Shown here piece by piece: positions 43,383-61,737 of a DNA stretch of 64,000 bases (position 1 is its first letter; every line of letters starts with the position of its first letter). A program made the translations under genes and the position numbers. Location: NCBI GenBank assembly GCA_032128875.1, contig JAVLKG010000001.1, positions 544,001-608,000 on the forward strand. Reading direction: 5' to 3'. The notes under the pieces were generated by a model. That model was given only the letters and a program-made list of their open reading frames with translations. It ran no database searches and was not told the origin of the DNA. Source of the stretch: Candidatus Melainabacteria bacterium 17Bon1m. GTDB taxonomy: Bacteria; Cyanobacteriota; Vampirovibrionia; Obscuribacterales; Obscuribacteraceae.

Positions 43383-43409
43383 AGGATTTTCCTGTAGGCG
43401 CGATACTGA

Positions 43410-43922
43410 TCAAAATATCCGAATGTACAACGATATGTCGGCTGTATTGTCCATGTTTCTCCACGTATGACCACGTTTGCAGAAGCCGTATCTTTCTAGG
43501 ACCTTTGCCATTCTCTTGTTGTAAGTTGTCGCAAAAAGCTCGTCTTGAAAACATTCGAGCAAGAATCTTACCATCGCCTTGGCAATACCCTCTCCCTCGT
43601 AGTGCTTGTGGACGGCGACATATCCTAATTCAGAAGTTTTATCTTCAAACTCGAATCCACTTTTCTTTGCAGTTTCGGCCGCATAATCTTTTCTAGTACG
43701 CTTGATAGCCCCTAGCCCAACTATTTCGTCGTTGTCATTTGTGACAAGTACCACTTATGGTGATACTGACAGTTCTACCGTTGCAGACTGGATGGATACG
43801 GCACCCCCGTCTTTCAAGATTTCTATGCTTGAATTTTTTTCTGCTGTGGTTATGAATTCACCTTGACCAATCAATTGAATCCATAGTCCTTCGTTGATTT
43901 GTTTTTTCGGTGTCCGTGCCAT
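43410..43922 (-). pseudogene. GNAT acetyltransferase interrupted by an in-frame TAA (43757-43755)
   Basis: ATG at 43922 reads 55 codons to TAA, then continues in frame into ...ELGYVAVHKHYEGEGIAK...N..M..VL...GF (GNAT motifs). Confidence 0.7.
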
Positions 43923-44118
43923 CTTGAATTCCAATCGATACAGTTTCCCGAATGCTTGCGCTTTCGATGTCTGAAGCTAATTCAGCTCGAAGAATAATCT
44001 CTTGCGCCAATTGTTACATCCCTGAAATTATAAATGGTTGATGGCTTAACTCATCAATCTGTTCAATGTAACCGATGCTTAGGAGCGAGCTATGAATAGC
44101 GATTTTGGATCACTTAGC

Positions 44119-44688
44119 TCAGTTCGCAAGGCGCCAGAACTCCAACAGCTTGTCGAAAAGACTATCAAACAGGTTCTCAGGAAGTAAATTTGCATCTTCC
44201 TTTGTCGACTTCCATATGACCGTTCTAAAGATCATTTGGGGATTTCTGCGCAGAATAACTTCATCAATGACCGAAACAGTGCAGGTTGTGCGTCCTTGAA
44301 ATGTATTGTAGTTCGCCAAAACCTCGGTCCCCTTTCTCTGATTCTGATTTACGGGCAGCAATTCAATCCCTGCTTCTTCAAATCTGTTTTGCGCGTTGTC
44401 AAAAATTTTTTTCTCCATTGCTTCATCATGGACAAGCTTTCCATTTACGGACGAGGTCACTGAGCATAGAAATCTAGCGATCTTAATGCCCTTAAGTGGT
44501 GCTGCGCGTAAGATTCGAACTGGGGGCGGCGCAGTTCCAACAATGGATGCCATTTTGTCCATATCATCAAAGAATGCCGGATCTAGCATGTCTGCGTTAG
44601 TTTGCGCAGCGGAAGCAGTTACAAATGTAATTGTCATTGCAGCTGATAGGGCACATGGTATTTGTATGGTGCCGAGTAAGTTTGTCAC
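44119..44688 (-). CDS. Hypothetical exported protein
   Basis: Signal-like N-terminus, 189-aa ORF, AAGGA RBS. Confidence 0.65.
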   Translation of the reverse strand: MTNLLGTIQIPCALSAAMTITFVTASAAQTNADMLDPAFFDDMDKMASIVGTAPPPVRILRAAPLKGIKIARFLCSVTSSVNGKLVHDEAMEKKIFDNAQNRFEEAGIELLPVNQNQRKGTEVLANYNTFQGRTTCTVSVIDEVILRRNPQMIFRTVIWKSTKEDANLLPENLFDSLFDKLLEFWRLAN

Positions 44689-44782
44689 GCTTTAGCAATC
44701 CTTTCGCCTGTTTGATCTATCTCGCCTTAAATAACTTCGATCGACGATTGTTAGATTCTGAGCTGTAATTGTAGCTGGTCGC

Positions 44783-46000
44783 TCATGTCGAACCAGATAT
44801 CGGCTTTTGAAACGGAACCACATTTAGACGTCGTTTGCTGCCCTTTAGAAGCGATTGTTGAGCCTTTGCCTTGGCATCACGCTCGGCGTTCTTTGCGGTG
44901 TGCGCATAGACCAGCATAGTGGTTTTAATGTCTTTGTGGTTAAGCGCTCCTTGAATGACCGATGCGTTTGCGCCACTGTTTGCCATCCATGAGGCCATAC
45001 TGCGCCGCAAGTCGTGAAGGCGTAGGTCTGTTATCTTGGCGCGCTTAAGAACTCGTGCCCACGCGCGTTTTGGATCTGCAAGATGGCCTTGATTGTGTGG
45101 ACCGGGGAATACATATTCACCCGGGGCAGCCACCATTCTTTTCTTCAAGATGGAAAGGTCAACATCTGTCAACGCGACTATATATTGATCGCCTGTCTTC
45201 GTTATTTCGCCCGGAATGGTCCAAGTACCGGTAGTGAAGTTGATGTCTTTCCAGCGCATTGCAAGCAGGTTTGACTTGCGCTCGCCGGTTAGTAAGGCGA
45301 GCATGAAAAAGTCTCGCATCACTGGATTCTCTTCCCAGTCCAGCGCGGCTTGAAGGCGTTCATACTCACCTTCATCCAGCACCCTAGAACGCGCGTTCTC
45401 CGGAAACATCGTGACGATGGTCGCAGGATTGCTGCCCTCAAAGAATCTCCATTTGATTGCTTTGTTGAACATCGCGCGCAGAATTTCAATGGCGCGATTT
45501 GCCGCGAGCGGTCCGCGAGTGTCGGCAATCTTTTGATGCAGTTCCATCACTTCGGTTGGATCAATTACAGACAGTCTTCGTGTTTTCCAGTGAGCAAAAG
45601 CTTTATCGAATGACGCGGTTATTTCGGCAACTCTTCTTCCTTTCTTCGAAAGGTGTTTCTCGACATAGTGTTCGAAGAGTTCTTCCAAAGTCATTTCTTT
45701 GTGTGATTGCCGCCGAACTTCAGCGAAGTTTTGTCCAACGGAAAGTTGCGATTGGAATTCTTGTGCTTTGGTTCTCGCCTGTTCAATTGATAAGTCTGGA
45801 AACCGGCCAATGCAAAGCCGCTCCGACTTACCTTGAAGTTTTCGCCGACAATAAAAGGTTTTTGTGCCCCCAGGCGAGACCAGGATGTAAAGTACGCGAA
45901 CCAGTTCATCAAAATAACGCACCTGTTGAGAACCAGGAGCTGGCAGTGGAAGCCGCTCGATCTCTCTTTTAGTAAAGTTGATGTAGTTGGATGCTGGCAT
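44783..46000 (-). CDS. int: Tyrosine recombinase/integrase with N-terminal arm-binding domain (P4-like)
   Basis: TGERKSN (Arg), HDLRR, LNH, terminal Tyr (VYAH); N-terminal VSPGGTKTF...IGRFPDLSIEQAR. Confidence 0.95.
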   Translation of the reverse strand: MPASNYINFTKREIERLPLPAPGSQQVRYFDELVRVLYILVSPGGTKTFYCRRKLQGKSERLCIGRFPDLSIEQARTKAQEFQSQLSVGQNFAEVRRQSHKEMTLEELFEHYVEKHLSKKGRRVAEITASFDKAFAHWKTRRLSVIDPTEVMELHQKIADTRGPLAANRAIEILRAMFNKAIKWRFFEGSNPATIVTMFPENARSRVLDEGEYERLQAALDWEENPVMRDFFMLALLTGERKSNLLAMRWKDINFTTGTWTIPGEITKTGDQYIVALTDVDLSILKKRMVAAPGEYVFPGPHNQGHLADPKRAWARVLKRAKITDLRLHDLRRSMASWMANSGANASVIQGALNHKDIKTTMLVYAHTAKNAERDAKAKAQQSLLKGSKRRLNVVPFQKPISGST

Positions 46001-46244
46001 TTTTGGTGTACTGATCTATGGCCCCTTTGGACGGGGCAAAATTCAGAAAAGCCCCGTTCTATGGTCCGAAACCATGAAGTCCTATGGCCCCTATATGGAC
46101 CCCTTGGAATCAAGTCTTACCCCTATTGCTCAAATTTGGCAAACAACAGTGATCGCTGGAAATGCTAGTAAACATAAGCCTTTTCAACGATAATCAACGC
46201 AGAAGAAAACAGATAAAATTTGCAAAAAATGAGGCGTTCTATTT

Positions 46245-46350
46245 CTACGAACCATGAGGTCGGGAGTTCGAATCTCTCCGGGCAGGTATATAGAACGGCT
46301 TTCTCTGAGCGGCAACGCAAAGATTGAGCCGTTTTTTATTGGGGTGGGCG
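46245..46350 (+). repeat. attR: duplicated 3' half of tRNA-Arg plus downstream sequence
   Basis: CTACGAACCATGAGGTCGGGAGTTCGAATCTCTCCGGGCAGG... identical to 35099 onwards; lacks the tRNA 5' half. Confidence 0.95.
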
Positions 46351-46468
46351 CTCCCCAATTATGGGCCCTTTTGGATCAAAGTTGATCAATTGAAAAAAAC
46401 TCGGGGCCATTAACTGAGCGCGAAAAACCATAGGGTCGGTTGGCGAAAATGAATTTTGGAGATCGTGA

Positions 46469-47311
46469 ATGAACCCGAGAACGCTGCTAATTTCAGTGTT
46501 GTTCATTGTAATGAGTGTTTCAAGAGCTCATGCAGATACTGGCTGGATTTCTGATGGCGGCTCTGTGCATTTGCTTGGCGAGAATGGATCCATAAGCATG
46601 GAAAGTGAAGTTGTGAATATTCGAGTGAGCAAAAATCTCGTTGAAGCAGATTGTCTATTCAAATTCGTCAATAATGGTCCCGCATGTACAGTGCGGATGG
46701 GCTTTCCCGATCAATGTAGCGATGAGAGGGATTCAGATGACGGATCGCCTAAGGGCGCATTTCTTTCATATAAGTCATTCATTGACGGCAAAGAAGTAAA
46801 GACTGAGACGCTAAAAGGCGGCTGGGATAATGGTGCCTATACAGTCTGGCACGCTAATGATGTCAGCTTTGATGCAAACGGCCGAAGAGAAATTCGAAAC
46901 ATCTACACAGTTTGTCCGGGCTTCGCTGCAGTCTCTGAAAAAGGATATGCTGCAAAATGCGTTGCCTACACGCTGCATACTGCTTCGTCGTGGCGTGGGA
47001 AAATTCATGATGGTGTTGTCTCGTTTAATTTTGATGGAGACGTAATTCCTCTTCCTGTTGAACTAGTGGAGGAAAAAAATTCAGCAGTTGATAAAAGCGC
47101 TAGGTATGACTGGCAGCGTGCAAAACCAGGAACGCTTGTTTTCACAAGCGCTCTCTCGCCGGTTGTTGAAGGGAACTCGATTCAGTTTAAGTTTAAGAAT
47201 TTCCGGCCTTCGACGAAAGATGACATCTTCATTTTTTATGGACGAATGGGTAAGGGAGAAGCAACCAGATTTGTCAGGATGGTTGAGAAAACTTATGCCA
47301 AAAGCAAATGA
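46469..47311 (+). CDS. Exported protein, DUF4424-like
   Basis: Signal peptide, ISMESEVV, F.F.N, MGFP, YTLHTASSWRG.I motifs. Confidence 0.7.
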   Translation: MNPRTLLISVLFIVMSVSRAHADTGWISDGGSVHLLGENGSISMESEVVNIRVSKNLVEADCLFKFVNNGPACTVRMGFPDQCSDERDSDDGSPKGAFLSYKSFIDGKEVKTETLKGGWDNGAYTVWHANDVSFDANGRREIRNIYTVCPGFAAVSEKGYAAKCVAYTLHTASSWRGKIHDGVVSFNFDGDVIPLPVELVEEKNSAVDKSARYDWQRAKPGTLVFTSALSPVVEGNSIQFKFKNFRPSTKDDIFIFYGRMGKGEATRFVRMVEKTYAKSK

Positions 47312-47533
47312 CTATCGTCACTTGCACCGCTTGCCTTGTCCAATGGAAATTTGATCGATGGTACAAATAGAAAATTGCAGCTTGGCTCCAGCTTTGCCCA
47401 GAGTAACATTTGTTTGGTCCTAGAAGAAAAGAATGCCGTGTATACTGATCACGTTCTGTTTATGATCTGCGGTACTCGGATCCTATTCGTTCTTGAATAC
47501 AGCGTTTTGACGCCTTAAGACGACTCGGGAGTG

Positions 47534-48352
47534 CTAGTTCTGCGGCGAAGGCTCTTTCAGAAACTTGGAGATTATCGAAAACAACTCAGCTTCCGAAACA
47601 TTTGCAAATGCATGATCCGCATTCTTGAAAATGTGTTCCTGGTATTGTCCTCCTGCCCTTTTGAGTACAGCGATCAATTGGCGCTCTCGGCTCAAAGGCA
47701 CAACTCGATCGGCGCTGCCGTGTAATATCAAAACTGGCGGCATGCGTGCAATTTTGTCTGTGGGCAGAACAAAACAACCAGCCATGTCGACCACGGAGAT
47801 TACTGCTGGATTGGATGCCACCGCATGTAATGCCAGTTGAGCGCCTAAGCTGTGTCCAAGAATACTTACGCGTTTTGAATCAATGCCCGGTTGCCGCTGG
47901 ACAAACTTGATACCATCACTAATAGTTTGCAGCCACTTTCCAAAGTTTGCACCCATCTGTGCATTGTTCGCATAGGCTATACCGCTGCGATCCATGTAAT
48001 GCACTATAACTGCATTGATTCCGCAGTTAGATAAACTGGACGCCATATCTCGGAAGAATCCACCTGTTTCTTCAATACCTCCGGACCCCGGCAGAATAAT
48101 TACAGTCGGGTTGCTTGTACTCTTTGCACTGTAAAACCACTCAGTTCTAATTGAATGCCCAGCCGACATGAATGTATTGTGGTTCACTGCCTGTGTGATT
48201 TTTGTTTTGCACATGGTTGCATCAGTTGCATGCTTGTCCGCGGACCAGCAATTGGGCCCCCAGGTAATTGCGACCCAAAGTGAACTGCAAAGAACTAAGC
48301 GTAAACGTGAGACTTGCTGTACTTGGCGCATGAATTTGGAGTGCGTATCCAT
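47534..48352 (-). CDS. Dienelactone-hydrolase-like alpha/beta hydrolase
   Basis: GHSLG nucleophile elbow, LILHGSADRVVP, ADHAF. Confidence 0.9.
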   Translation of the reverse strand: MDTHSKFMRQVQQVSRLRLVLCSSLWVAITWGPNCWSADKHATDATMCKTKITQAVNHNTFMSAGHSIRTEWFYSAKSTSNPTVIILPGSGGIEETGGFFRDMASSLSNCGINAVIVHYMDRSGIAYANNAQMGANFGKWLQTISDGIKFVQRQPGIDSKRVSILGHSLGAQLALHAVASNPAVISVVDMAGCFVLPTDKIARMPPVLILHGSADRVVPLSRERQLIAVLKRAGGQYQEHIFKNADHAFANVSEAELFSIISKFLKEPSPQN

Positions 48353-48431
48353 GTGTTAGTCCGGTTGTACGGCAAATTTTGCCGCTAAGCGTGAATTGTA
48401 TTGTGGTAACCATATCCTAGATGGAGGGAAA

Positions 48432-48791
48432 ATGGGCAAAACTATAGATTTGAAACAGCTGGCAGTTGCGAAGTTTCCTGAGAAGGTTGCTGCGCTGCGG
48501 ATGCTGTTTGGTTTTACCCAAGAAGAACTTGCGAGAAGTCTTGGCGTTAACGAAAAGACTATAAGGCGTTGGGAGCGCGAAGATGTTGAACCACGCGCGC
48601 AAAACAAACAAGCCGTGCAGGCACTCATAACCATTGCCGAAGCGCTCTGTGATCTGTTTGAACCAGATGTAATAAAGGTTTGGGTCGATCGTGAAAATCC
48701 GAAGTTGAATGGCGAGCGTCCCAGGGACTTTGTGAAGAGGCCTGGCGGTATCTTTATTGTGGCGAACTTACTTGGTACCGTGGGCCGCTGA
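48432..48791 (+). CDS. XRE HTH + MbcA/ParS-like C-terminal antitoxin
   Basis: FTQEELARSLGVNEKTIRRWE and WVDRENPKLNGERPRD. Confidence 0.8.
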   Translation: MGKTIDLKQLAVAKFPEKVAALRMLFGFTQEELARSLGVNEKTIRRWEREDVEPRAQNKQAVQALITIAEALCDLFEPDVIKVWVDRENPKLNGERPRDFVKRPGGIFIVANLLGTVGR

Positions 48792-49906: not shown

Positions 49907-50245
49907 TTACCGCCCGGAAAACTCTTTCATGACTTGTCCGTAGCGTTTGCCGACAGAGCCGCAGACTATGTCGCACAGCTCATAAATGCTGCTGTCACAG
50001 ATGCTGTAGAAGACAAACAATCCTTGGCGTCGTTTTTGAACAATCCCCTGTTCTGCCAGCACAGACAAGTGCTTACTGACGTTTGCCTGGCTCATGCCGC
50101 TCAACTCACACAATTCCTGTACCGAACGCTCTTCCTTAAAGAGGTATTGCAATATTTGCAATCTGGAAGCGTCGGATAGCGCCCGGAAGCGGGACGCAAC
50201 GATTTCGAGCGCCGGTCGTGACAGTAATTTGTTTTTGTCTTTCAT
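49907..50245 (-). CDS. ArsR/SmtB-family repressor divergent from the persulfide operon
   Basis: FRALSDASRLQIL, SQANVSKHL, C-terminal LCDIVC. Confidence 0.92.
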   Translation of the reverse strand: MKDKNKLLSRPALEIVASRFRALSDASRLQILQYLFKEERSVQELCELSGMSQANVSKHLSVLAEQGIVQKRRQGLFVFYSICDSSIYELCDIVCGSVGKRYGQVMKEFSGR

Positions 50246-50318
50246 ATTGGAAAGCCCATGTTTCACTAAGTCCAGTCTACAACCCTTTGGTTGATTCTTC
50301 AATCAATCTTATGGTTGA

Positions 50319-50350
50319 TTCGCTATATAACCAATTAGCGATATAGTGAA
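50319..50350. promoter_or_regulatory. Probable ArsR operator (inverted repeat)
   Basis: TTCGCTATAT-N12-ATATAGTGAA (9/10 match) between the divergent genes. Confidence 0.6.
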
Positions 50351-50375
50351 TTTGATTCCATTTGAGGGCTTCACT

Positions 50376-50951
50376 ATGTCAGAAACGTCTAAATCCTCCG
50401 TTTGCCAGCAATTGGCGCCTGCCGATCTGGCAGCAGTTGCTGGAGATATGGTGCTGCTCGATGTTCGCAGCCCGATTGAATTTGAGACGGAACACATACC
50501 TAACTCTATAAATGTTCCGCTCAACGAGCTTGAATCTCGCTGCGAGGAAGTGTCTCGGCAGGGGCAGCTCGTGGTGATATGTAGGTCCGGCAAACGAGCG
50601 GAACGTGGTGCTTACACCCTCTTAGGCAAAGGTTTTCAGCCCAAGGTGCTGGATGGTGGGTTGGTTGCCTGGCGCAAAGCCGGGCTGCCAGTCAAGGAAG
50701 GTAGAAAGATGCTTCCTATAGAACGTCAGATTCAGCTCATTGTTGGCATCGGTGTCCTGGCGGGCGTTCTCCTCGGTGTTTTCGTAAGTCCATGGTTTTT
50801 CGTCATTCCTGGATTTTTCGGAGCAGGGCTGACCTTTGCAGGTTTGTCTGGAACTTGCGCTTTAGGAATTATGTTGGGGAAGGCTCCCTGGAATGCGCTA
50901 AAAGCGCCGACCACGCAAAAGCAGAGCAACAAATCTAGTTGTTGTCCGTGA
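50376..50951 (+). CDS. Rhodanese + DUF2892 membrane protein (YgaP-like sulfurtransferase)
   Basis: LDVRSPIEF, active-site CRSGKR, ERQIQ, GAGL.FAGLSGTC..., APWN. Confidence 0.92.
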   Translation: MSETSKSSVCQQLAPADLAAVAGDMVLLDVRSPIEFETEHIPNSINVPLNELESRCEEVSRQGQLVVICRSGKRAERGAYTLLGKGFQPKVLDGGLVAWRKAGLPVKEGRKMLPIERQIQLIVGIGVLAGVLLGVFVSPWFFVIPGFFGAGLTFAGLSGTCALGIMLGKAPWNALKAPTTQKQSNKSSCCP

Positions 50952-50968
50952 CAGGCGGAGGTGATTTG

Positions 50969-51712
50969 ATGCTGGGAAGTGCAATTGCTGGACTTGCAAC
51001 CGGCACCCTGCTGGGACTTCTAGGGGGTGGCGGAACCATCATAGCAGTGCCGATTCTTGTTTATGTCCTCGGATTGGAGGCTAAGGCAGCGATAGGCACG
51101 AGCTTGATCATAGTTGGTTTGGCAAGCTTGCTCGCTGCATGGAGTCATTACCGGCATCACTCAGTAATTGTTTCCACTGCTCTTATATTCGGAGCGACGG
51201 GCGCTCTGGGTAGCTTCGCAGGCGCCAAGATTGCACAAGTCATTCCAGACGCGGTGCAACTGAGTTTGTTCGCTATTGTTATGGCATTAGTGGCTTTACT
51301 GATGCTGAAGCATAAACGGCCAACCGAGTTGGCGAGCAACGACACAAAACTCGCACTGCCAGTGGTGGTAGCTTCGGGTGTCGGCGCTGGGGTGTTGACC
51401 GGTTTGATCGGCGTCGGTGGCGGGTTCATTATTGTCCCTGTGTTCACCATACTTTTGCGCATGCCGATAAAGCAAGCAATCGGTACTTCACTGCTTGTGA
51501 TTAGCATCAATAGCATGGTAGGCGCGATTTCATACGCTTCGCGCTTGAGTTTCAATTTCTCAATCTTACCTTTTGCCGTGGGTACCCTGGCTGCTGCTCC
51601 CCTTGCGGGTCGTGTTGCCCAGTACCTCCCACAGGAAAAACTCAGGATTACCTTTGCGGTATCACTATTAATTCTGTCAGCGTGGATGCTGACCAATCAA
51701 ATTTTCCAATAG
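50969..51712 (+). CDS. Sulfite exporter TauE/SafE family
   Basis: GLLGGGG.I.VP and GLIGVGGGFIIVP repeats, AIGTSL twice. Confidence 0.92.
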   Translation: MLGSAIAGLATGTLLGLLGGGGTIIAVPILVYVLGLEAKAAIGTSLIIVGLASLLAAWSHYRHHSVIVSTALIFGATGALGSFAGAKIAQVIPDAVQLSLFAIVMALVALLMLKHKRPTELASNDTKLALPVVVASGVGAGVLTGLIGVGGGFIIVPVFTILLRMPIKQAIGTSLLVISINSMVGAISYASRLSFNFSILPFAVGTLAAAPLAGRVAQYLPQEKLRITFAVSLLILSAWMLTNQIFQ

Positions 51713-51727
51713 CTACTGGAGTTACTT

Positions 51728-53125
51728 ATGTATTTCAAACAGTTTTATCTTGGATGCCTTGCTCATGGCTCTTATCTGCTCGGTTCAGAAGGAGAAGCTG
51801 TTGTCATCGATCCGCAGCGAGATGTGGACCAATACATTGAAGAAGCTAAGAAAGAACGGCTTTCCATCAAATACATAATAGAGACGCATCTGCATGCGGA
51901 TTTTGTAAGTGGGCATAGAGAGCTGGCAGAAAGAACTGGTGCTCAGATTGTTTTCGGCGAAAAGGCCGGCGCATCGTTTCCTCATATAGCAGTCAAAGAC
52001 GGAGATATCTTACAGGTTGGAACGTTGATTCTCTCCATACTTGAGACCCCAGGGCATACTCCTGAAAGCATTTGTGTTCTAGCGAAAGATGCTGCTGACG
52101 ACAAGCCAGCCATGTTGTTCTCTGGGGACACGCTTTTCATCGGGGACGTCGGTAGACCAGATCTCGTCGGCAGTAAAGGCTACAGCGACAAAGAGATGGC
52201 AGGGTTGATGTACGAAAGTCTCCATGAAAAAGTCCTCAAGCTCTCTGATGACGTTGAGGTATTCCCGGCGCACGGTGCTGGATCGCTTTGCGGCAAGCAC
52301 CTTTCGAATGAAAAATCATCCACAATTAGGGAGCAGAAGTTGTTTAACTACGCTCTCAAGCCGATGTCGAAAGAGGCATTTGTAGAGATGTTGACCGCGG
52401 ATCAGCCGGAGGTACCGGCCTACTTCCCGAAAGATGTCGAAATAAATCGCCTGGGTGCTTCGTCTTTGAATACCCTTGCTCGCCCACTACCTTTAGGTGC
52501 AGAAGCAGTGGCAAAAGAGTTGCAGCGAGGCGCAGTTGTTCTCGACATTCGTGGTGCCGCCGAATATGCAGGCGGACACATTAAAGGTTCGTTGAACATC
52601 GGTCTTGGCGGACAGTTTGCCTCATGGTCGGGCACCTTAATCGAAATCGGTACACCCGTTGTTATTGTTGCAAATGAACTTGCTCAGATCGACGAGGCGG
52701 TTATGAGGCTTGCAAGGGTGGGCATCGAAAGCGTAATCGGCTATTTGGAAAATGGAATTAGCACCTGGCATGATGCCGGTTTTGAGGTGACGCAATCAAC
52801 GACAATCTCAGTTGCTGAACTCAAACGAAAGCTTGATGCCGGCGAAGACTTGTTGGTTGTGGACGTCAGGAGATCTGGTGAATACAACTCAGGTCACGTT
52901 CCGAGCGCAATCAATATTCCCTTAGCAGAGCTGGTAGAAGGCATTTCAAATTTGCCGAGAGAGTTGCCGCTGGCAGTAATTTGTGCAAGTGGCTACCGCT
53001 CAACAATTGCGACCAGTGTTCTTGAAAAGGGCGGTCTTAAATTCCTTATGAATGTTCTTGGCGGAACAGCCGCCTGGAAGAATGCCGGTTATGCCACGCA
53101 GAATAAGGAGACAACGACAGTCTGA
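51728..53125 (+). CDS. Persulfide dioxygenase-like MBL fold fused to two rhodanese domains (CstB-like)
   Basis: ETHLHADFVSG, TPGHT, GDTLFIGDVGRPDL, PAHGAGSLCG, C-terminal CASGYRS. Confidence 0.92.
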   Translation: MYFKQFYLGCLAHGSYLLGSEGEAVVIDPQRDVDQYIEEAKKERLSIKYIIETHLHADFVSGHRELAERTGAQIVFGEKAGASFPHIAVKDGDILQVGTLILSILETPGHTPESICVLAKDAADDKPAMLFSGDTLFIGDVGRPDLVGSKGYSDKEMAGLMYESLHEKVLKLSDDVEVFPAHGAGSLCGKHLSNEKSSTIREQKLFNYALKPMSKEAFVEMLTADQPEVPAYFPKDVEINRLGASSLNTLARPLPLGAEAVAKELQRGAVVLDIRGAAEYAGGHIKGSLNIGLGGQFASWSGTLIEIGTPVVIVANELAQIDEAVMRLARVGIESVIGYLENGISTWHDAGFEVTQSTTISVAELKRKLDAGEDLLVVDVRRSGEYNSGHVPSAINIPLAELVEGISNLPRELPLAVICASGYRSTIATSVLEKGGLKFLMNVLGGTAAWKNAGYATQNKETTTV

Positions 53126-53227
53126 TTTTGCATTGGAGTGATTTCACTACATTGAAAAGCAGCTCTCAGAGCTTGAGAAAAACTATCAACAACAGCGGTG
53201 AGAAAAAGAATATATGAGGACAGCAAT

Positions 53228-54979
53228 ATGAGAGTTACCGGTTCCACGGCAAAAAAGATTGTCATCGTAGGTGGTGTCGCAGGTGGAATGAGCGCGGCTG
53301 CTAGAGCGCGACGCCTTTCTGAGGATTCGGAAATTATCGTTCTTGAAAGAAGCGGATACGTCTCTTACGCCAATTGCGGTTTGCCATATTTTCTAGGAGG
53401 AGAGATTGAAACGCAGGAGCAATTGATAGTGGTTACGCCTGAGGCTCTGAAGGACAAACTGAATCTCGATGTTCGTGTTCATCATGAGGTCATTGAAATC
53501 GACGCGAAAGCGAAGATGGTATCGGTAAGAGAGACAACCAGCGAGCGGATCTATCAGGAGAGTTATGACGATCTGATTCTTGCTGTTGGAGCAGCTCCTG
53601 TCAGACCTGGAGTGCCTGGCATCGATCTGCCAGGGTTGTTTACGCTGCGCAGTATTGAAGATGTTGAATCGATTCAATCGTGGTTCGAGATTCAGAAGCC
53701 GCGCACTGCGGTAGTGGCAGGTGGTGGCTTCATTGGTCTGGAGATGGCAGAACAGTTAGCTCGCAGAGGAGTTGATGTCACGCTCATTGACGGCAAAGAC
53801 CACGTACTTGCACCGCTTGATATTGAAATGGCAGAACTCGTGCATAAGGAATTGCGAAAGCATGATATTAAGCTTGTGCTTGGTCGTTCGATTGAAGGTT
53901 TCCGTGCACCAGGCGAAATTGCTGGAGCTTCCGAAGATGTGCCAAAATCTTGCTGGGTTCTTGCTGAAAGACATGAGCCCATGCCGGCGGATCTTGTAAT
54001 ACTGGGGCTGGGAATCAGGCCTGAAGTAACGTTAGCGCGCAAAGCCGGATTAATCGTCGGCGAGCGGGGCGGTATTCGGGTAGACGATTATCTACAAACC
54101 AGTTCGCCTAACATATGGGCAGTCGGCGACGCAATTGAGGTGCGTAATCCGGTAAACGGCGAGTGGACACTCATTGCATTGGGAGGTCCGGCTAATCGTC
54201 AAGGACGCATTGCAGCGAACAACATCTTCGGTGCAAAACAAAACTACGATGGCACGATCGGCACCGCCATCCTTCGGGTGTTCGACCTGACTGTTGCATC
54301 GGTAGGGCTCAACGAAGCACAATTGAAATCAAGCTCTATTCCTTATGAAACCATCTTTGTTCATCCTAGCCATCACGCCAGCTATTACCCTGGCGCAGAG
54401 CGTCTTGATATGAAGATGCTCTTCCACAAGGAAGCTGGCACGCTGCTGGGCGCGCAGGTAATCGGTAAAGAAGGCGTCGATAAGCGGATAGATGTGCTCG
54501 CGACAGCGGTCAAGGCACGCATGACCATCAGCGATTTGTCCGAGCTGGAATTGGCATATGCCCCGCCCTTTGGCTCAGCGAAAGATCCAATTAATTTGGC
54601 AGGAATGTCCGGAACTAATGTGCTAGAGGGATTGGTCGAGCAAGTGCAGTGGCATCAAGTCCCAGCTTTGGCCACAAGCGGAGCCGTAATAATTGATGTT
54701 CGCTCGCGCGGCGAGCGTGCCAGAGGGTACATTGATGGCAGTGTTCACATACCACTCCCAGAGCTGAGAAAACGACTGTCAGAGGTACCAGTTGGAAAAG
54801 CGATAGTCACATATTGTCAAAGTGGTCAACGCTCCTACAATGCATCCCGATTCCTCAAACAGAATGGATTCAGTGTCAAGAATTTGTCTGGTGGGTACCT
54901 GACATGGAACTCAATGCAGCAAGGCAAGGAGGAAGGAACGGATCCTCAGAATGCACTACCTGCGGTGCTATCTAAATAA
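53228..54979 (+). CDS. CoA-disulfide (CoA-persulfide) reductase with C-terminal rhodanese domain
   Basis: GGVAGG, SYANCGLPY, GGGFIGLE, LAYAPPF, rhodanese YCQSGQRS. Confidence 0.93.
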   Translation: MRVTGSTAKKIVIVGGVAGGMSAAARARRLSEDSEIIVLERSGYVSYANCGLPYFLGGEIETQEQLIVVTPEALKDKLNLDVRVHHEVIEIDAKAKMVSVRETTSERIYQESYDDLILAVGAAPVRPGVPGIDLPGLFTLRSIEDVESIQSWFEIQKPRTAVVAGGGFIGLEMAEQLARRGVDVTLIDGKDHVLAPLDIEMAELVHKELRKHDIKLVLGRSIEGFRAPGEIAGASEDVPKSCWVLAERHEPMPADLVILGLGIRPEVTLARKAGLIVGERGGIRVDDYLQTSSPNIWAVGDAIEVRNPVNGEWTLIALGGPANRQGRIAANNIFGAKQNYDGTIGTAILRVFDLTVASVGLNEAQLKSSSIPYETIFVHPSHHASYYPGAERLDMKMLFHKEAGTLLGAQVIGKEGVDKRIDVLATAVKARMTISDLSELELAYAPPFGSAKDPINLAGMSGTNVLEGLVEQVQWHQVPALATSGAVIIDVRSRGERARGYIDGSVHIPLPELRKRLSEVPVGKAIVTYCQSGQRSYNASRFLKQNGFSVKNLSGGYLTWNSMQQGKEEGTDPQNALPAVLSK

Positions 54980-55054: not shown

Positions 55055-55243
55055 ATGGACAGCGTAATCTGGTTCGTTGGAATTGTTGTGTTCTACTTTG
55101 CGATGCAACTCTGGATATTGCCGAAGCTCGGCATACCTACTTGAATGTCACGGAGTTGCTCGGTCGGGCAGCAGAAGAAAACACCTGTTCAGCAAGAGAA
55201 ACAAGAGTCCATTAAGCATGGCGAACAAGGCAAAAGCGATTAG
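55055..55243 (+). CDS. Candidate small membrane selenoprotein (62 aa, Sec at codon 30; alternative in-frame start 55007)
   Basis: AAGGAGG RBS; MDSVIWFVGIVVFYFAMQLWILPKLGIPT-TGA(55142-55144)-MSRSCSVGQQKK...KSD-TAG; SECIS-like hairpin immediately downstream. Confidence 0.65.
55155..55172 (+). promoter_or_regulatory. Bacterial SECIS-like hairpin
   Basis: Stem GTTGCTC/GGGCAGC, loop GGTC; the loop begins 17 nt after the UGA. Confidence 0.65.
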
Positions 55244-56300
55244 AGCAATCCATGTGACACTGGTGTGTTTACTGGCAGCATTGAGCTTCAGTGGCGCTGT
55301 GTGGTCTGAAGAGTGCCGGACAACTGGTGCTGCACTCTCATCCCCTCTTGGTGCGCGTTGCACTGAAGATCCCTCATGCGTTATTGTTGGAGAGACCCAC
55401 ATGCTGGAGTGGAAGAGTCCAGAACCGGCCAAAATAATTGTGGTGTGTATACACGGACTTGGGTTGTGCGCTCGAGCCTACAAACCATTAGCTAAGGAAC
55501 TTTCTGCTGCAGGGATCGACGGATTTGGTGTGAACGTGCGAGGCTTTGGTCCTGACAGGGACAGACCAGATCGCGCGAAATTGAACTGTATAGAGACCGT
55601 AGGCGACGTGAGCAAATTGCTTACTAGCATTCGTAAAGAACACCCTGGCTACAAGGTCTTTCTCATCGGTGAATCAATGGGTGGTGCACTTGCAATAAGA
55701 ATTGCTGCAGAGAATCCAAGTTTAGTGGATGGTGTCGTCTGCTCTGCTCCTGCCTGGAAATTACTCAAGATGAAGCAGACTGCTGTAAAAGGTGTCTTTG
55801 AGTTGTTTTTGTTTCCTGGAAGTCATCCAGGCCCTGCCGGTCGTGCCATGATGCATCAAGCGACGACCGACCCTGAGCTAACACAGCACTGGTTAACGGA
55901 TCCATCGCATAAGTTGAGACTATCTTTCCATGAAGCTACTTCTCTTTTGCGCTTCATCTCGAAGACAGATACCTACGCCAAACGCATAAATGGACCTGTC
56001 TTGGTTGTTCAGGGTCTTGGTGATCATCTTGTATCGCCTAAAGCAGTTGCCAAACTAGTCAGAGATATCCCTTCTGAGAACAAGACGTTTCTCATTGATG
56101 GAAAGGGAGAGCATCTTGTTCTTGAAGAGGGCAAATTTTCGCCACCGCTTGTTGAGAAGCTGATCGCTTGGATGAAAACTGAGTCCAGCGATCAATCAAG
56201 AATGGCATTCGTGACTGAAGTGGTAAATGATCAGGCGCTATCTTCGAAGGAGAAACGCAGGTTGAAGACATTGCGGCGACTGTCTAGAAATCCAAACTGA
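55218..56300 (+). CDS. Exported alpha/beta hydrolase (lysophospholipase-like)
   Basis: IHGLG, RGFG, GESMGG, QGLGDHLV, GEHL; signal peptide from MANKAKA. Confidence 0.88.
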   Translation: MANKAKAIRAIHVTLVCLLAALSFSGAVWSEECRTTGAALSSPLGARCTEDPSCVIVGETHMLEWKSPEPAKIIVVCIHGLGLCARAYKPLAKELSAAGIDGFGVNVRGFGPDRDRPDRAKLNCIETVGDVSKLLTSIRKEHPGYKVFLIGESMGGALAIRIAAENPSLVDGVVCSAPAWKLLKMKQTAVKGVFELFLFPGSHPGPAGRAMMHQATTDPELTQHWLTDPSHKLRLSFHEATSLLRFISKTDTYAKRINGPVLVVQGLGDHLVSPKAVAKLVRDIPSENKTFLIDGKGEHLVLEEGKFSPPLVEKLIAWMKTESSDQSRMAFVTEVVNDQALSSKEKRRLKTLRRLSRNPN

Positions 56301-56403
56301 CATGCAAGCTTTTTGTGTCCTTCGGGATGCACCCAGGCTAGCACATTCACTACAACGGCCCTGGACAAAGCGGAATGCCGACGCAAGTTAACTCTTAAGT
56401 TGA

Positions 56404-57483
56404 CTACTTCGGAATACCCTTTTCGTACCAACCCTTACTATGGTTTACGATTTTGACGACAGCAAGCATGACCGGAACTTCAATCAAGACACCAACCACG
56501 GTGGCAAGAGCTGCGCCGGAATTGAATCCAAACAAACTAATCGCGGTTGCAACTGCAAGTTCGAAAAAGTTACTGGCACCGATGAGTGCTGAGGGGCCGG
56601 CGACGCAGTGAGCAACACGCAACTTCTTGTTGAGCAAGTATGCAAGCGAAGAATTAAAAAACACCTGAATCAGAATTGGTACCGCCAATATTGCGATTAC
56701 GAGCGGCTGCTTGAGAATTGCTTCACCTTGAAACGCAAATAGCAGTACAAGTGTAATGAGCAAAGCCGAAAGTGAAACGGGATGGAGGAATGCTAGCGTT
56801 TTATCGAACGCGCTCTGACCCTGTTTCAACAACAGACTTCTCCACAACTGTGCAATCAATACTGGTATCACAATGTACAGACCAACCGATATTAGTAGCG
56901 TATCCCACGGGACAGTGATAGAGGATAAACCCAGCAAGAGCCCGACGATGGGCGCAAAAGCAAAGATCATGATTAAGTCATTAACTGCAACTTGCGATAA
57001 TGTGAAATAAGGATCGCCTTTGGTCAACTGGCTCCAAACGAAAACCATTGCTGTGCACGGAGCGGCTGCGAGCAGAATCAATCCTGCTACATAGCTGTCG
57101 AGCTGATCTTGCGGCAGGTACTGAGCAAAAACTACGCGAATGAATATGTAAGCTAGAAGAGCCATCGAGAACGGCTTGATCGCCCAGTTAATGAACAGTG
57201 TCACCGCGATGCCTTTCCAGTGTTGCTTTACTTGTCCTAGCGCCCCGAAGTCAATCTTCAAAAGCATGGGCACAATCATCAACCAAATCAAAATCCCTAC
57301 TGGAATATTTACTCTGGCAATTTCAAGCGAACCGATGAATTTGACCGGACCCGACAAGAGCTGACCCAGCGCAATTCCTACGCCAATACAGAGAAAAACC
57401 CAGACTGTCAGCCAACGTTCGAAGAACCCTATAGATGCCTGAGTTGCTCCGCTGTCTGACACTTCACTTTCTTGAATGCTCAT
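56404..57483 (-). CDS. acr3: ACR3-family arsenite efflux transporter
   Basis: FFERWLTVWV, NWAIKPFSM, AAPCTAMVFVW, ASNFFELAVA, GVLIEVPVML. Confidence 0.97.
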   Translation of the reverse strand: MSIQESEVSDSGATQASIGFFERWLTVWVFLCIGVGIALGQLLSGPVKFIGSLEIARVNIPVGILIWLMIVPMLLKIDFGALGQVKQHWKGIAVTLFINWAIKPFSMALLAYIFIRVVFAQYLPQDQLDSYVAGLILLAAAPCTAMVFVWSQLTKGDPYFTLSQVAVNDLIMIFAFAPIVGLLLGLSSITVPWDTLLISVGLYIVIPVLIAQLWRSLLLKQGQSAFDKTLAFLHPVSLSALLITLVLLFAFQGEAILKQPLVIAILAVPILIQVFFNSSLAYLLNKKLRVAHCVAGPSALIGASNFFELAVATAISLFGFNSGAALATVVGVLIEVPVMLAVVKIVNHSKGWYEKGIPK

Positions 57484-57881
57484 CTACAATCCATGGGTAC
57501 TTCAGTCTTTGCGAGTTCTTCTACTTTTGCTTTGATCTCATCGCGCACACGCCTGAACACATCGAGAGGTTGCCCTTTTGGATCGTCGATATTCCAGTTC
57601 GCCTGGGTGCCAATGAATGTAGATGGGCAGAAATCAGCGGTCTTGACCGAGCACATAGAAATCACCGCGTCATAGTCGGCAAGTCTCTCGTTGTCGATTG
57701 TTTTGGAGAATTGCTTGGATATGTCGATACCTACTTCTTCCATAACCTTCACCGCGTCTGGATTGACGCCGCTGCCGGACTTAACACCGGCGCTGTCGGA
57801 CTCAAGACCTAACTGGCGGCCAAAACCTTCGGCTATCTGGCTGCGACAAGTATTTTCTATACAGATAAACAAGACTCTCAA
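57480..57881 (-). CDS. arsC: Arsenate reductase, LMW-PTP (thioredoxin-type); TTG start
   Basis: CIENTCRSQ (CX5R) P-loop, MC......CP resolving cysteines, WNIDDP; coupled to acr3. Confidence 0.9.
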   Translation of the reverse strand: MRVLFICIENTCRSQIAEGFGRQLGLESDSAGVKSGSGVNPDAVKVMEEVGIDISKQFSKTIDNERLADYDAVISMCSVKTADFCPSTFIGTQANWNIDDPKGQPLDVFRRVRDEIKAKVEELAKTEVPMDCR

Positions 57882-58017
57882 TTGCAGCACTCCAACTCTT
57901 CGATTTGTAATGGTTCTCCCAATCGCATAAACCATTAAGGACCAACATTTTGAATACTTCCAAGCGTAATTTTTTCGCCAGAGCCGGAAATGCTCTGAAT
58001 GCGTTTTTGTTTTCCAT
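57878..58017 (-). pseudogene. Internally deleted ArsR-type regulator remnant
   Basis: MENKNAFRAFPALAKKLRLEVFKMLV (ArsR N-terminus) joined out of frame to ...LGEPLQIEELECCN*, whose stop overlaps the arsC start. Confidence 0.6.
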
Positions 58018-58039
58018 ATTTCCAATATTATCGAAATAT
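58016..58039. promoter_or_regulatory. ArsR-type operator inverted repeat
   Basis: ATATTTC-N10-GAAATAT directly at the start of the arsR remnant. Confidence 0.65.
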
Positions 58040-58282
58040 CGAAGGAATGTCAACGTTTGTTCCAAAGGTTATTGGATCCGTTGTTCGAGACCAGAGCTCG
58101 CTGCAGTTTCTCGGAGTAGTCTCAAAGCAACTCTTGCGCCGCTCGGCGAGATTGGCTTGTTCAACAGAGGATGTCCGAAGCACGCCGGCAGTATCTTTCA
58201 GCCACAGTCCGCTCTATAATACCGTCAGGTCAAGATTTGACATCGACTATTCTGGTCCGAATCAAAAGAGAACATACTATTA

Positions 58283-58747
58283 ATGAAACCAAAAAGTAAG
58301 GCAGGTAAACCGTTTCCGCAATTGCCGCCGGACACGCCGACCAGATATGGTCCACTCAGCATCCATCAAAACGGAATTGCTGTAAAAACGCTGATGGCAA
58401 CGCCAACACCGCTGATTGGAAAGCAAAGTCACCTTGCATATTCTTTGGAAAATGTACGTTTGTCGCTGCACGTGGAGCGTTTCGACGCAACAGAACGACT
58501 GTCCTCCGACATAACTTGCGTCACCCGTTTCCCTGAATACGGTGTCGAAAGCAAACACCTGACACCATGCGAGATGCGCGTTGGGCAGACTCATGGGACG
58601 GCCGTAGTTCAATCAACTTGCATGTGTATGGATTTCGAGAACATGCAAGATACAGTTTTGGAAGTGGAATATAAGCTCGGCGACGAATCGATTTCGCTTG
58701 TGTCTATTCCCGTTAAATTTCCGGTTGCATCTCCCGAAGAACAGTAA
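58283..58747 (+). CDS. Hypothetical protein
   Basis: 154-aa ORF with beta-rich composition; no family recognised. Confidence 0.55.
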   Translation: MKPKSKAGKPFPQLPPDTPTRYGPLSIHQNGIAVKTLMATPTPLIGKQSHLAYSLENVRLSLHVERFDATERLSSDITCVTRFPEYGVESKHLTPCEMRVGQTHGTAVVQSTCMCMDFENMQDTVLEVEYKLGDESISLVSIPVKFPVASPEEQ

Positions 58748-59228
58748 GCTCTCTGATTTCGACCGATTTGATGCGGACGCCCCAGCTGTTCGCGCGGCGG
58801 CTGAGTTCTCGTTTGAGCACGCTATTTACTTCCACCTCGCTAGTGAGAATTCTTTGTGCTGTGTACTCGCCGACAGCACTTCTGAGTACCGTGTGCATTA
58901 TTTCTACTGTGTGCGCAATCGGATCATCAACCTTCGCGATCGCCTTCGCTGCGTCTTTTATGTAAAACCGACAAAGTGCAGAGAGTTTTACTGGCACATT
59001 GTCTAAAGTGGTGGTCTCAATCAGAGACGTAACGGAAGCGGTGATTCGCGTGTCAACGATGAGCGAACGGTCGATCAGGGGGACAACCAATTGCATGCCC
59101 GGGCCTCTGTCCCCGATGATTTTTCCGAATCGAAAAATGACCAGGCGATCATGCTCTCTTACGATCTTTATTCCGGAAAGTAAAATCATGAATACAAGGA
59201 CTAGCATCCCGCCGAAGATTTCGTGCAT
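58713..59228 (-). CDS. SPFH/band-7 (stomatin-like) protein, short form
   Basis: TM + IVREHDRLVIFRFGK..GPG, T.DNVPV, LRSAVG, WGVRIKSVEIR. Confidence 0.85.
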   Translation of the reverse strand: MHEIFGGMLVLVFMILLSGIKIVREHDRLVIFRFGKIIGDRGPGMQLVVPLIDRSLIVDTRITASVTSLIETTTLDNVPVKLSALCRFYIKDAAKAIAKVDDPIAHTVEIMHTVLRSAVGEYTAQRILTSEVEVNSVLKRELSRRANSWGVRIKSVEIRELTVLREMQPEI

Positions 59229-59434
59229 TGTTTTAATCCAGAAGTTTTTCCAATTCTAGCCAGTGCCACTTTCGCCTGTGACTGGGAAAAACCCTAGTTG
59301 CGCTCTCAATCAGTGGATGACCCTGTTCGTATCTTTCCGAGCATGCTCAGTTTGCAAACTGTTTTATGTCACAACAGAAACGATTCGCCTGGCGATATGT
59401 TGTGTGTGTCTGCAACTATGAGGCTTTGACCTGT

Positions 59435-59734
59435 ATGGACCGACCAACAATCAATGAAAACACTGCTGCTTGGATGGCGTTTGTGTGGATTTCTTTTGGC
59501 ATATCTGTATTTCTGATGTCGTGCGGAATTTACCAATTGCCCGCAGAACTTTGGGTGAAGGGCTACATGACGATGGGGCTATTTTTCTGTGTAGGTTCGA
59601 GTTTCACGCTTGCGAAAACAGTGCGCGATAACCATGAATCACGCAAACTGATTAATCGCGTGACGGTAGTGAAGACCGAGCGAATGTTGCAAGATTATGA
59701 GTTGAAAGAGCCCATCTATGCGGCGCCGCGCTGA
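59435..59734 (+). CDS. YiaA/YiaB two-helix membrane protein
   Basis: TAAW..FVWISF, KGY..MG, SFTLAKTVRDNHE. Confidence 0.85.
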   Translation: MDRPTINENTAAWMAFVWISFGISVFLMSCGIYQLPAELWVKGYMTMGLFFCVGSSFTLAKTVRDNHESRKLINRVTVVKTERMLQDYELKEPIYAAPR

Positions 59735-60348
59735 TGCTCATCGTGCGCTTCGTTGTCTGCGAATTCGGAGACGGCATCAATAGCAGCGGCTGTTCTATCT
59801 ATGGGCTCGGCAATTCTTTGAACATCATCGAAGTCGCCACGAATGGCTTTTAGAGCGAAGATTTCCGCATCGATTTCGGAGCGCGTGCGAACTCCAAGTC
59901 GACGGAACATCGGAATTGGTGGGCACCAGCCCCTGATTGCATGATTCATGAGGAACAATGAGACCGCAAAAGGAATGGCAAGGAATTTCTTGCCGCCAAA
60001 AGCTGTAAGAATGCATCCTCCAGTTGAAATGATTGTTGCATTGAGTTGTAGTACGCGCTCAATGTCCCACTCTTCCGCCAGCTCGTTCAGTCGTTCTGAA
60101 ATTTCTTCCTCGCCGCTGCAAACAAAAGCAGCAATGTTTCGCTCAGTCTGGCGATCTATTTTTTCATTGATCTTGTCGCAAGTGTTTGCGCGCACTCTGT
60201 CTATTTTCTCGGGAACTATATCTTTCTGCATAACCGCTGCCCTCAGTTGTTTTAGCATGAAATACCTCAACTTCAATCGAAGACCGTGCCTTGTATTGAT
60301 GGTTCCAACTTTTGGCAATGAAATAAGAAATAAAAACGTATGCTGCAA
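59716..60348 (-). CDS. DUF2892-like membrane protein (start likely internal, MQKDIV)
   Basis: EWDIERVL, HAIRGWCPP, RRLGVRT..EID.E..ALKA.RGDF. Confidence 0.8.
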   Translation of the reverse strand: MQHTFLFLISLPKVGTINTRHGLRLKLRYFMLKQLRAAVMQKDIVPEKIDRVRANTCDKINEKIDRQTERNIAAFVCSGEEEISERLNELAEEWDIERVLQLNATIISTGGCILTAFGGKKFLAIPFAVSLFLMNHAIRGWCPPIPMFRRLGVRTRSEIDAEIFALKAIRGDFDDVQRIAEPIDRTAAAIDAVSEFADNEAHDEHQRGAA

Positions 60349-60426
60349 ATTTTGGGTTTCTAGGGTTTTTCCTATGCGCCTGGATTGCTTTGCGAGTTAT
60401 CCTGGGAAGACTGAGAGGAAAAACCT

Positions 60427-61008
60427 GTGTCTAGCGAAACCGCCAACTCCGTCGGTCAGATTACGACGGCGAGTAAAGTTAAGCTCGTCGTTAGTGGGTC
60501 AGAACTAGAGAAGATTCACAGCCTGCCTGTGGATGAATACTTCGACTTGCTCGAAGAGGCTACTCCTGAGCAGCTTCAATTAATAATTCATTCGTTTGAG
60601 AAAGTGTCGCGCACCAAAAGTGGTGCCAGCTTGTTACAGAAAATCATTGCAGTTCCACAAGGGCGGCGTTCTCTATTTTCAATCTTAATGTGGTGGGAGT
60701 CGCGACGCCCTGTATACAACATCATTGTTGGTTTAGTCGGCTTGCCTTCTATCTTGCTGCTGTCGCTATTTGGGATGGGGCACGCCGCTGTTGTCGCGGC
60801 ATTTGTCTACGCCATCTGTGCCAACATCTGCTATTGCTTGGGGGCTCCCGCCGAAGTCGTGGCGCGCGCTTGCTACAAACAAAATGCAGAAACCTACGCT
60901 CCTGTATTGTTCACTCTCGGAACCATCTTCTCTGTTGTTTTAACCGTATTACTTGAACTTCTGGTCTTTGCCGCTCTGGTATTTGGAGCAGTCTCCGGAC
61001 GTTTCTAG
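60427..61008 (+). CDS. Hypothetical membrane protein
   Basis: WWESRRPVYN motif, ANICYCLG, three TM segments. Confidence 0.8.
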   Translation: MSSETANSVGQITTASKVKLVVSGSELEKIHSLPVDEYFDLLEEATPEQLQLIIHSFEKVSRTKSGASLLQKIIAVPQGRRSLFSILMWWESRRPVYNIIVGLVGLPSILLLSLFGMGHAAVVAAFVYAICANICYCLGAPAEVVARACYKQNAETYAPVLFTLGTIFSVVLTVLLELLVFAALVFGAVSGRF

Positions 61009-61121
61009 CAACCTGCTGCCCCAGGAAAGCTCTGAAATTGGTCAAAAGCGCTGCCTGGCCGGCCTCAGTGTGGCATAAACTGAATGCTTGGATATAATGA
61101 AAGTTGTCTGGAGGCGGTCGA

Positions 61122-61737
61122 ATGAACGCAGCAGTCAATTTTTCGGTCAATCTTATCCTGGTACTTGTTCCCGGCTATTTACTGAGTTTTACGATGTTTA
61201 GAGACACTTCAATTGCTAAATTGCCCGAGCAGGGCAGCCTTCACAAGGTTGTACTTGCCGCTGGTTGATTCTGGGGGGTTGAGGCGGCGCTTCAACGAAT
61301 CGACGGAGTCAAGCACGCGACTTCCGGTTATACAGGCGGATCAACGAAAGATCCGACCTACAAAGATGTTTGCAGTGGACGGACCGGGCATGCTGAAGCA
61401 GTCCAGGTCTTGTTCGACGCGAAAGTCGTCTCTTTCAAGGACATTATCCGCTTTTACGTGAAGCAGTTCGGACCGAGCCGGCACCAGGGCGAGGAAACTT
61501 TACGTGAAGCAGTTCGGACCGAGCCGGCACCAGGGCGAGGAAACCAGCCAGTACCGAGCGGCGATATTTTACGAGAGTGAGGAGCAAAAGAAGGAAGCGG
61601 GCGAAGTGCTTGGGGAATTTGGCTTTGATAAGGCGGATACCGAGCGTTTGCTTGAGCCTGCAGCCACTTTCTTCGCTGCCGAGGTTTATCACCAGAAATA
61701 CTATGAGAAGTCCTCCATGGGGCTTTACAGACGCTAG
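61122..61737 (+). CDS. msrA: Peptide methionine sulfoxide reductase A, selenocysteine form (GUFWG); reading frame broken by a 46-bp duplication in this sequence
   Basis: GGAGG RBS, ATG 61122; AAG-TGA(61266-61268)-FWGVE, SGYTGG, PTYKDVCSG.TGHAEAV, QYRAAIF, AEVYHQKYY. Confidence 0.85.
61267..61301 (+). promoter_or_regulatory. Bacterial SECIS-like hairpin in msrA
   Basis: Upper stem GTTGAGGC/GCTTCAAC (61278-61296), loop GGC 17 nt after the UGA; lower stem GATTC/GAATC. Confidence 0.7.
61453..61544 (+). repeat. Perfect 46-bp tandem duplication
   Basis: TTTACGTGAAGCAGTTCGGACCGAGCCGGCACCAGGGCGAGGAAAC at 61453-61498 and 61499-61544. Confidence 0.97.

Follow-up and report, generated by a model that had tools for sequence, protein, structure and literature searches.

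The 64,000-nucleotide stretch analysed here (hereafter the window) belongs to Candidatus Melainabacteria bacterium 17Bon1m (contig JAVLKG010000001.1 of assembly GCA_032128875.1, positions 544,001 to 608,000) and contains two unrelated genes in which an in-frame UGA is followed by an RNA hairpin. Gene 1 encodes a small putative membrane protein, and gene 2 is an msrA with the UGA at the catalytic cysteine position of the enzyme. Judging from sequence comparisons, both UGAs are very probably genuine selenocysteine (Sec) codons decoded by the standard bacterial mechanism, which is in itself ordinary. In this mechanism, SelD is the source of selenophosphate and SelA acts on Ser-tRNA(Sec) to convert it; SelB, bound to a hairpin placed after the UGA, delivers the Sec-tRNA. 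The two UGAs of the window would be read in this way, through SelD and SelA and then through SelB acting on the hairpin just past the UGA. A Sec trait extending across the lineage and the assignment of gene 1 to an uncatalogued family of micro-selenoproteins are both well supported and highly likely.

In gene 1, the stem GTTGCTC (55155-55161, 7 bp) leads to the loop GGTC, which starts at 55162, and is closed by the 3' arm GGGCAGC; in msrA, the 8-bp stem GTTGAGGC (61278-61285) leads to the loop GGC, starting at 61286. The original prediction had noticed that both loops begin with GG 17 nt past the UGA and that both upper stems begin with GTTG, and the sequence and the folds agree with it. Both hairpins also meet the published model of the bacterial selenocysteine insertion sequence (bSECIS), which in the accessible part of its source (PMC13188914) places a loop starting with G[G/U] 16-37 nt from the UGA, the full set applied being this distance, a loop of 3-9 nt, G in loop positions 1-2 and a minimum free energy <= -7.5. 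A strict geometry (GG loop 17 nt from the UGA on a stem of 7 bp or more), for which the two cases were themselves the model, was found at none of the 1201 TGA stops of called genes, at 3 of 1991 TAG and 0 of 2225 TAA stops, at 98 of all 274,933 TGA triplets and, among in-frame Cys codons, at 9 of 18,736. The objection that such hairpins are equally frequent after ordinary TGA stops is thus answered in the negative for this geometry.

The behaviour of the gene-1 hairpin among relatives is more informative. All 46 distinct close relatives use TCG for the Ser and GTC for the Val whose codons span the loop, and upstream synonymous sites vary freely. A paired change, TGT/GAA, is present in three of these 46 relatives and also in the gene-1 paralog located on contig C1 of the same genome, and four of the 46 end the hairpin arm in CAA, which pairs with T in the rows inspected. 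Homologs from other phyla have a different sequence past the UGA, and a G-loop hairpin is retained at 17-22 nt in most rows. From these patterns, the gene-1 hairpin appears to be under selection as RNA. The MsrA hairpin is found in 17 of 18 TGA forms and in none of seven Cys forms.

Read through the UGA, gene 1 yields MDSVIW...ILPKLGIPT-U-MSRSC..., followed by a variable hydrophilic tail, from a start that is backed by aligned relatives and by a GGAGGG-like site. Structure prediction places a single helix at residues 2-20, and hydropathy agrees with a membrane segment. Gene 1 would hence be a real 62-residue protein in which a membrane helix leads into a conserved LPKLGI(P/S)T neck, followed by a U-x4-C site and a variable tail, in a predicted topology. 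The family is present in 70 of 103 genomes of the host family, with TGA in all but two of the matches listed; SelA is found in 65 of these 70 genomes and, of the other five, three carry SelB and two tRNA-Sec. The gene-1 profile was positive in the three genomes of the sister family, and it found nothing in seven well-assembled host-family genomes that lack SelA, in six genomes of the large Sec-less family f6 or in 16 genomes of the other Sec-positive class. A scan of GTDB returned 79 loci, 73 of them parsed, giving 71 TGA, two TGT and one TGC sites, with hosts that include Planctomycetota, Myxococcota, Acidobacteriota, Verrucomicrobiales and Deltaproteobacteria. Among 29 of these host genomes that were tested, SelA was detected in 26 and tRNA-Sec in two more, and the only one with neither carries the TGC form. 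As far as these genomes indicate, TGA forms of gene 1 occur only together with Sec machinery. Cys (TGT) forms that keep the hairpin were also observed in SelA-bearing genomes (L167, L204) and look like Sec-to-Cys reversions.

In a protein library, 260 clusters (50% identity) match gene 1. Within the best 150 of the 260, the site is Cys in 66, the end of the sequence in 50, Trp in 20 and something else in five, with nine unparsed, and a second Cys lies four residues past the site in 61. Neither gene 1 nor 12 family members had a Pfam or NCBIfam match at E 0.05, save two of chance level, the ESM Atlas returned one unnamed cluster at 0.90, and the combination of a membrane helix with a U-x4-C motif is absent from the 119-family selenoprotein table of a 2026 review in its accessible form (PMC13188914).

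Several points weigh against this interpretation. The looser published SECIS model also accepts 37 of 1201 TGA stops and, among sampled Cys codons, 76 of 1500, four of 13 candidates of the genome fail our own version of the generic SECIS test, and folding energies are ordinary relative to shuffles (z -0.83 for gene 1 and -1.41 for msrA). A hairpin alone proves little, and therefore the case rests on comparative evidence. There too, an alignment of the 26 nearest gene-1 relatives contains no two-sided pair change and scores no higher than shuffles, and the compensatory change comes from a handful of related sequences. The structure model of gene 1 is poor outside the helix (AlphaFold, pLDDT 61), and 20 of the best 150 clusters have Trp at the site; they are probably gene calls made with UGA read as Trp.

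At the genome level, the original prediction had considered a Sec-decoding host from Vampirovibrionia/Obscuribacterales as a possibility and had seen no sel genes in the window. The assignment to Obscuribacterales is upheld by the labels of relatives and by the failure to find a photosystem II reaction-centre gene in the genome: the nearest gene-1 relatives are labelled Obscuribacterales, Obscuribacteraceae or Ca. Obscuribacter, and the 90% clusters of SelA, SelB and SelD contain Ca. Melainabacteria members. The full machinery was recovered, with SelA on contig C10, SelB on C3, SelD on C4 and a tRNA-Sec with anticodon TCA on C9, each above its curated cut-off; no sel gene was seen among the open reading frames (ORFs) of the window. 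The genome measures 7.55 Mb, with 93% completeness and 4.5% contamination. Its SelD has the Cys form of the active site, and a Sec formate dehydrogenase was not found in the genome, where two molybdopterin oxidoreductases lack an internal stop. Downstream of the Cys-type selD lies a gene of TusA plus DsrE-like type (L018:680-2490), which we take to be YedF-like. Two compact tRNA arrays of mobile-element type, with 10 and 6 genes, were also observed (C1:269233-270215 and C3:1007950-1008664).

In the accessible parts of earlier work, Sec decoding was undetected in Cyanobacteria in a 2006 survey, which considered that it may have been lost at the base (PMC1794560), and only selD and ybbB were found in that group (PMC1273633). 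One Sec-containing protein is mentioned in passing in a Ca. Melainabacteria proteome (PMC9529120), and sel genes are already named by NCBI in metagenome-assembled genomes of this lineage; the trait is therefore not wholly unrecorded. BSepDB screened 18 Vampirovibrionia and eight Sericytochromatia genomes for known families only, according to the available text (PMC13326102), and the portions available of PMC5029168, PMC12013277, PMC5330540 and PMC6349859 hold nothing on Sec in the Obscuribacterales lineage. A literature search, whose coverage extends to few subscription papers, returned no study of Sec in the lineage.

The expectation of a larger selenoproteome was borne out, since homology and gene-anchored scans give 15 candidates, the two window genes included, on nine contigs. 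By homology, they comprise a tetratricopeptide-repeat (TPR) thioredoxin and a TlpA-like protein. Further candidates are three exported thioredoxin-like proteins, a WUPG protein, a SelW/Rdx protein, two TPR proteins ending in G-U-X-stop, an ArsC-family protein above the NF041106 cut-off, the gene-1 paralog and two proteins of the type signal peptide-QG-UGA. Ranking a SECIS scan by coding score brought up the two window genes alone, and the others required homology or gene-anchored scans. Conservation across genomes was checked for four selenoprotein families. In the TPR-thioredoxin (L054:2497-3159, minus strand), which adjoins a Cys paralog, CCCGTGTTT is present in 23 of 23 TGA forms and in none of seven Cys forms, and the protein has Cys in three genomes that lack SelA. 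All 12 matches to the TlpA-like protein (L053:1794-2810, plus strand) carry TGA, and the stems around CGTGA covary. Both proteins have a UxxC motif and a second type of hairpin, with the loop CGTG at about 23-26 nt. A TGA at C18:32288 (L251), followed by a hairpin and lying between one ORF and another of 564 codons (presumably GNAT-like and S41-peptidase-like, respectively), was set aside as probably a boundary between two genes and not a Sec site.

Gene 2 contains a PMSR domain with a GUFWG motif, and Sec-MsrA is listed as experimentally verified in the accessible part of PMC13188914. TGA is found in 21 of the 32 matches listed, from 19 of 104 genomes. The C-terminal half of the protein is not in an intact frame here, with 103 codons after the UGA compared with 138-141 in 17 relatives, where it is intact, as it also is in runs X6 and X7. 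The cause is a tandem duplication of 46 bp, whose junction was assembled at the depth of its flanks in two runs, X1 and X5, each a possible source of the DNA analysed here; the assemblies of X6 and X7 skip it. Because it is present in the former and absent from the latter, the duplication is a real strain-level lesion, which could represent pseudogenisation or a reversible switch. Gene 2 would therefore be a membrane-anchored or exported Sec-MsrA recently inactivated by the duplication, in a genome where two Cys-MsrAs remain (Pfam MsrA search, best 150 rows, mostly Cys forms).

The distribution of the trait was followed with SelA because SelB counts at E 1e-70 are too low (genera g9, g14 and g12 do have SelB). 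SelA was found in 82 of 103 genomes of the host family, in all three of the sister family and in both of one further family (f3); the nine other families sampled in the class gave none in 292 genomes. A single clade unites the 21 SelA sequences of the order (100/99); the SelB sequences form one at 92/82, with the sister family branching first, in a tree with few Terrabacteria outgroups and two loci left out. The downstream neighbour of selA is the same in 16 of 20 loci, and tuf lies near selA in the three longer loci. On these phylogenies and gene orders, the Sec system is at least as old as the order Obscuribacterales and inherited; the ancestor of the order, or an earlier one, would already have had it, and some genera would have lost it.

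The original prediction had allowed that the genes were imported from a Sec-using donor, and a recent import of the two genes or of the whole system, or contamination of the bin, could be imagined from the occurrence of the gene-1 family in Planctomycetota, Myxococcota, Acidobacteriota and Desulfobacterales, from the patchiness of Sec-MsrA among the matches listed and from the contamination estimate given above. The monophyly of SelA and SelB within the order and the selA synteny speak against it, as do the SelA counts in the host and sister families, the spread of the sel genes over four large contigs, with selA beside tuf, and the membership of the closest gene-1 and MsrA relatives, among the matches listed, in the host family; recent import is highly improbable. 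An ancient transfer of the Sec system into the ancestor of the order is conceivable. The trait extends further in the phylum: in a sample of 400 genomes SelA was present in 23, all in five families outside the host class (23 of 33 genomes), and these have tRNA-Sec in five of five and SelB in 10 of 12 tested, with five of ten looked up named Ca. Sericytochromatia; the remaining genomes of the sample, presumably mostly oxygenic, yielded no SelA. A tree uniting the SelA of Obscuribacterales and of the main Sericytochromatia group is not rejected (approximately unbiased test, p-AU 0.88), with a likelihood about equal to that of a careful free tree. The SelA backbone is unsupported, FastTree and quick trees disagree on deep nodes and groupings shift between runs, the thinned tree having left out 26 rows. 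SelA of family f3 (L370, L371) falls outside the Obscuribacterales group, and families f19 and f3 are placed next to low-GC clostridia, perhaps as an effect of composition. A single ancestral origin of Sec in Cyanobacteriota, followed by loss in oxygenic cyanobacteria, is a tentative proposal, and somewhat doubtful. In the Sericytochromatia-labelled group, selA usually adjoins selB (L255-L277). SelA proteins labelled Planktothrix, Drouetiella and Stenomitos (P0227, P0281, P0336) fall inside the Obscuribacterales or Sericytochromatia clades, and database labels can therefore falsely suggest Sec in oxygenic cyanobacteria.

The remaining alternatives concern the decoding event and its signal. The gene-1 TGA could be a true stop with a restart at the next ATG, giving two coupled mini-ORFs and a hairpin with another role; an ATG does follow the TGA in 46 of 46 close relatives, and one database protein begins at MSRSC (P0174). 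This is scarcely credible when the Cys clusters counted above (66 of the best 150 of 260) read through the site and keep the same Met/Leu and the second Cys, when Leu replaces Met in the TGA forms L219 and L226, and when TGA forms track the Sec machinery. A general reading of UGA as Trp or Cys, to which the Trp entries would lend themselves, has a practically negligible probability: UGA is otherwise a normal stop, ending 1333 of 5862 called genes, and in a self-comparison of the genome TGA stands opposite Cys at redox motifs in three convincing cases and opposite Trp once. The suggestion of a rigid SECIS consensus peculiar to the lineage, with a GTTG stem and a GG loop exactly 17 nt from the UGA, drew on the shared geometry of two unrelated genes, and the loop GGTC at 17 nt in 52 of 71 gene-1 TGA sites would fit it. 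Yet the loops of the other Sec genes of the genome lie at about 20-26 nt and read CGTG, CGGG or GGT, the loop stays at 20 nt in three gene-1 relatives that have an inserted codon, and the published model covers both window hairpins, so that such a consensus is very unlikely. All these loops begin with G[G/U] or nearly so; there is no private or new SECIS class, and a spacing of 17 nt is among the values allowed. GTTG is indeed shared, but by coincidence: the first base of the gene-1 stem is C in 24 of the 25 distinct relatives, and the GTTGA of msrA encodes the Val-Glu of FWGVE. Sec decoding of both UGAs by the standard mechanism is thus preferred.

The features of the locus are collected in Table 1. 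The original prediction had described the two genes as clustered with sulfur and arsenic redox genes, and only the link of gene 1 alone to sulfur genes was sustained: 25 of 79 gene-1 loci, two Acidobacteriota and two Planctomycetota among them, have homologs of the sulfur operon no more than 4 kb away. Arsenic genes accompany gene 1 in only two of 30 loci, one being the window, and acr3 adjoins it in one relative; in the relatives compared, gene 1 is separated from msrA by a long distance or is located on another contig, and the candidates of the selenoproteome are dispersed over their nine contigs. The wider cluster is therefore only local. Other gene-1 loci have scattered redox, arsenic or unrelated neighbours (the Pfam scan of neighbours took in 91 of 148 extracted ORFs). 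Gene 1 could act as a membrane-tethered selenyl-sulfide/persulfide relay for the adjacent rhodanese, persulfide-dioxygenase-like and CoA-disulfide-reductase-like enzymes, a role whose likelihood falls slightly short of even; the small share of loci with sulfur-operon neighbours and the many unrelated ones weaken this functional guess, and the binding of a metal or metalloid is the main alternative. Just upstream of the sulfur operon, integrase-like ORFs and ORFs of atypical codon usage were observed (37947-48791), probably a mobile island.

Table 1. Features of the window discussed in the text (coordinates are those of the window)
Feature	Position	Strand	Basis
Gene 1, predicted 62-aa single-helix membrane selenoprotein of an uncatalogued family	55055..55243	+	translation, family alignment, helix prediction, hydropathy
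In-frame UGA of gene 1 (predicted Sec30), opposite Cys in homologs	55142..55144	+	alignments
Putative bSECIS upper stem-loop of gene 1, loop GGTC	55155..55172	+	synonymous-site conservation, folds
Gene 2, predicted Sec-MsrA (GUFWG) with hydrophobic N-terminal segment, frameshifted	61122..61737	+	domain matches, relatives
In-frame UGA of msrA (predicted Sec49) at the MsrA catalytic Cys position	61266..61268	+	alignment
Putative bSECIS upper stem-loop of msrA, loop GGC	61278..61296	+	kept in TGA forms, folds
Perfect 46-bp tandem duplication shifting the msrA frame, early stop at 61578	61453..61544	+	sequence, run contigs
ArsR/SmtB-family regulator, divergent from the sulfur operon	49907..50302	-	domain matches
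Sulfur genes directly upstream of gene 1: rhodanese-YgaP, TauE/SafE, metallo-beta-lactamase (MBL) fold plus rhodanese, CoA-disulfide-reductase-like plus rhodanese	50346..54979	+	
arsC (low-molecular-weight phosphatase, LMWP, type) and acr3, nearby, not a conserved partner	56404..57890	-	domain matches

The presence of Sec in most Obscuribacterales and many Sericytochromatia makes phylogenomic testing of its history possible and could connect the use of selenium with the emergence of oxygenic photosynthesis. It is also of interest that the genome keeps the trait without the usual anchor enzymes. The gene-1 family, for its part, is truncated in or missed by databases in spite of its 260 clusters, and its minimal U-x4-C site should be easily assayed.

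Compared with standard bacterial decoding by SelB and bSECIS, the host has the same set of selA, selB, selC and selD, an in-ORF G[G/U] hairpin at 16-37 nt and UGA opposite a redox Cys, flanked on either side by conserved sequence. It differs in the Cys form of its SelD and in having no Sec formate dehydrogenase that could be found, in its unlinked sel genes, in the many candidates with signal or membrane segments, and in the lineage itself, Cyanobacteria having been negative in the 2006 survey as far as its accessible text goes (PMC1794560). Gene 2 resembles known Sec-MsrA (PF01625, GUFWG/H motif) in its PMSR domain, its GUFWG motif and the Cys paralogs in the genome, and departs from it in a hydrophobic N-terminal extension conserved in its subfamily and in the frameshift introduced by the duplication. 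Like the catalogued small selenoproteins (TsoA/TsoC/TsoX/TsoY, dual-CXXC NF041197, UXX-star, KCU-star, YHS and DG/DW/DF), gene 1 is short, truncated by gene callers and represented by Sec/Cys homolog pairs, and it shares sulfur-related gene neighbourhoods with the Tso group. Unlike them, as far as the available part of the catalogue allows the comparison, it lacks an NCBIfam or Pfam match and combines a membrane helix with a U-x4-C site.

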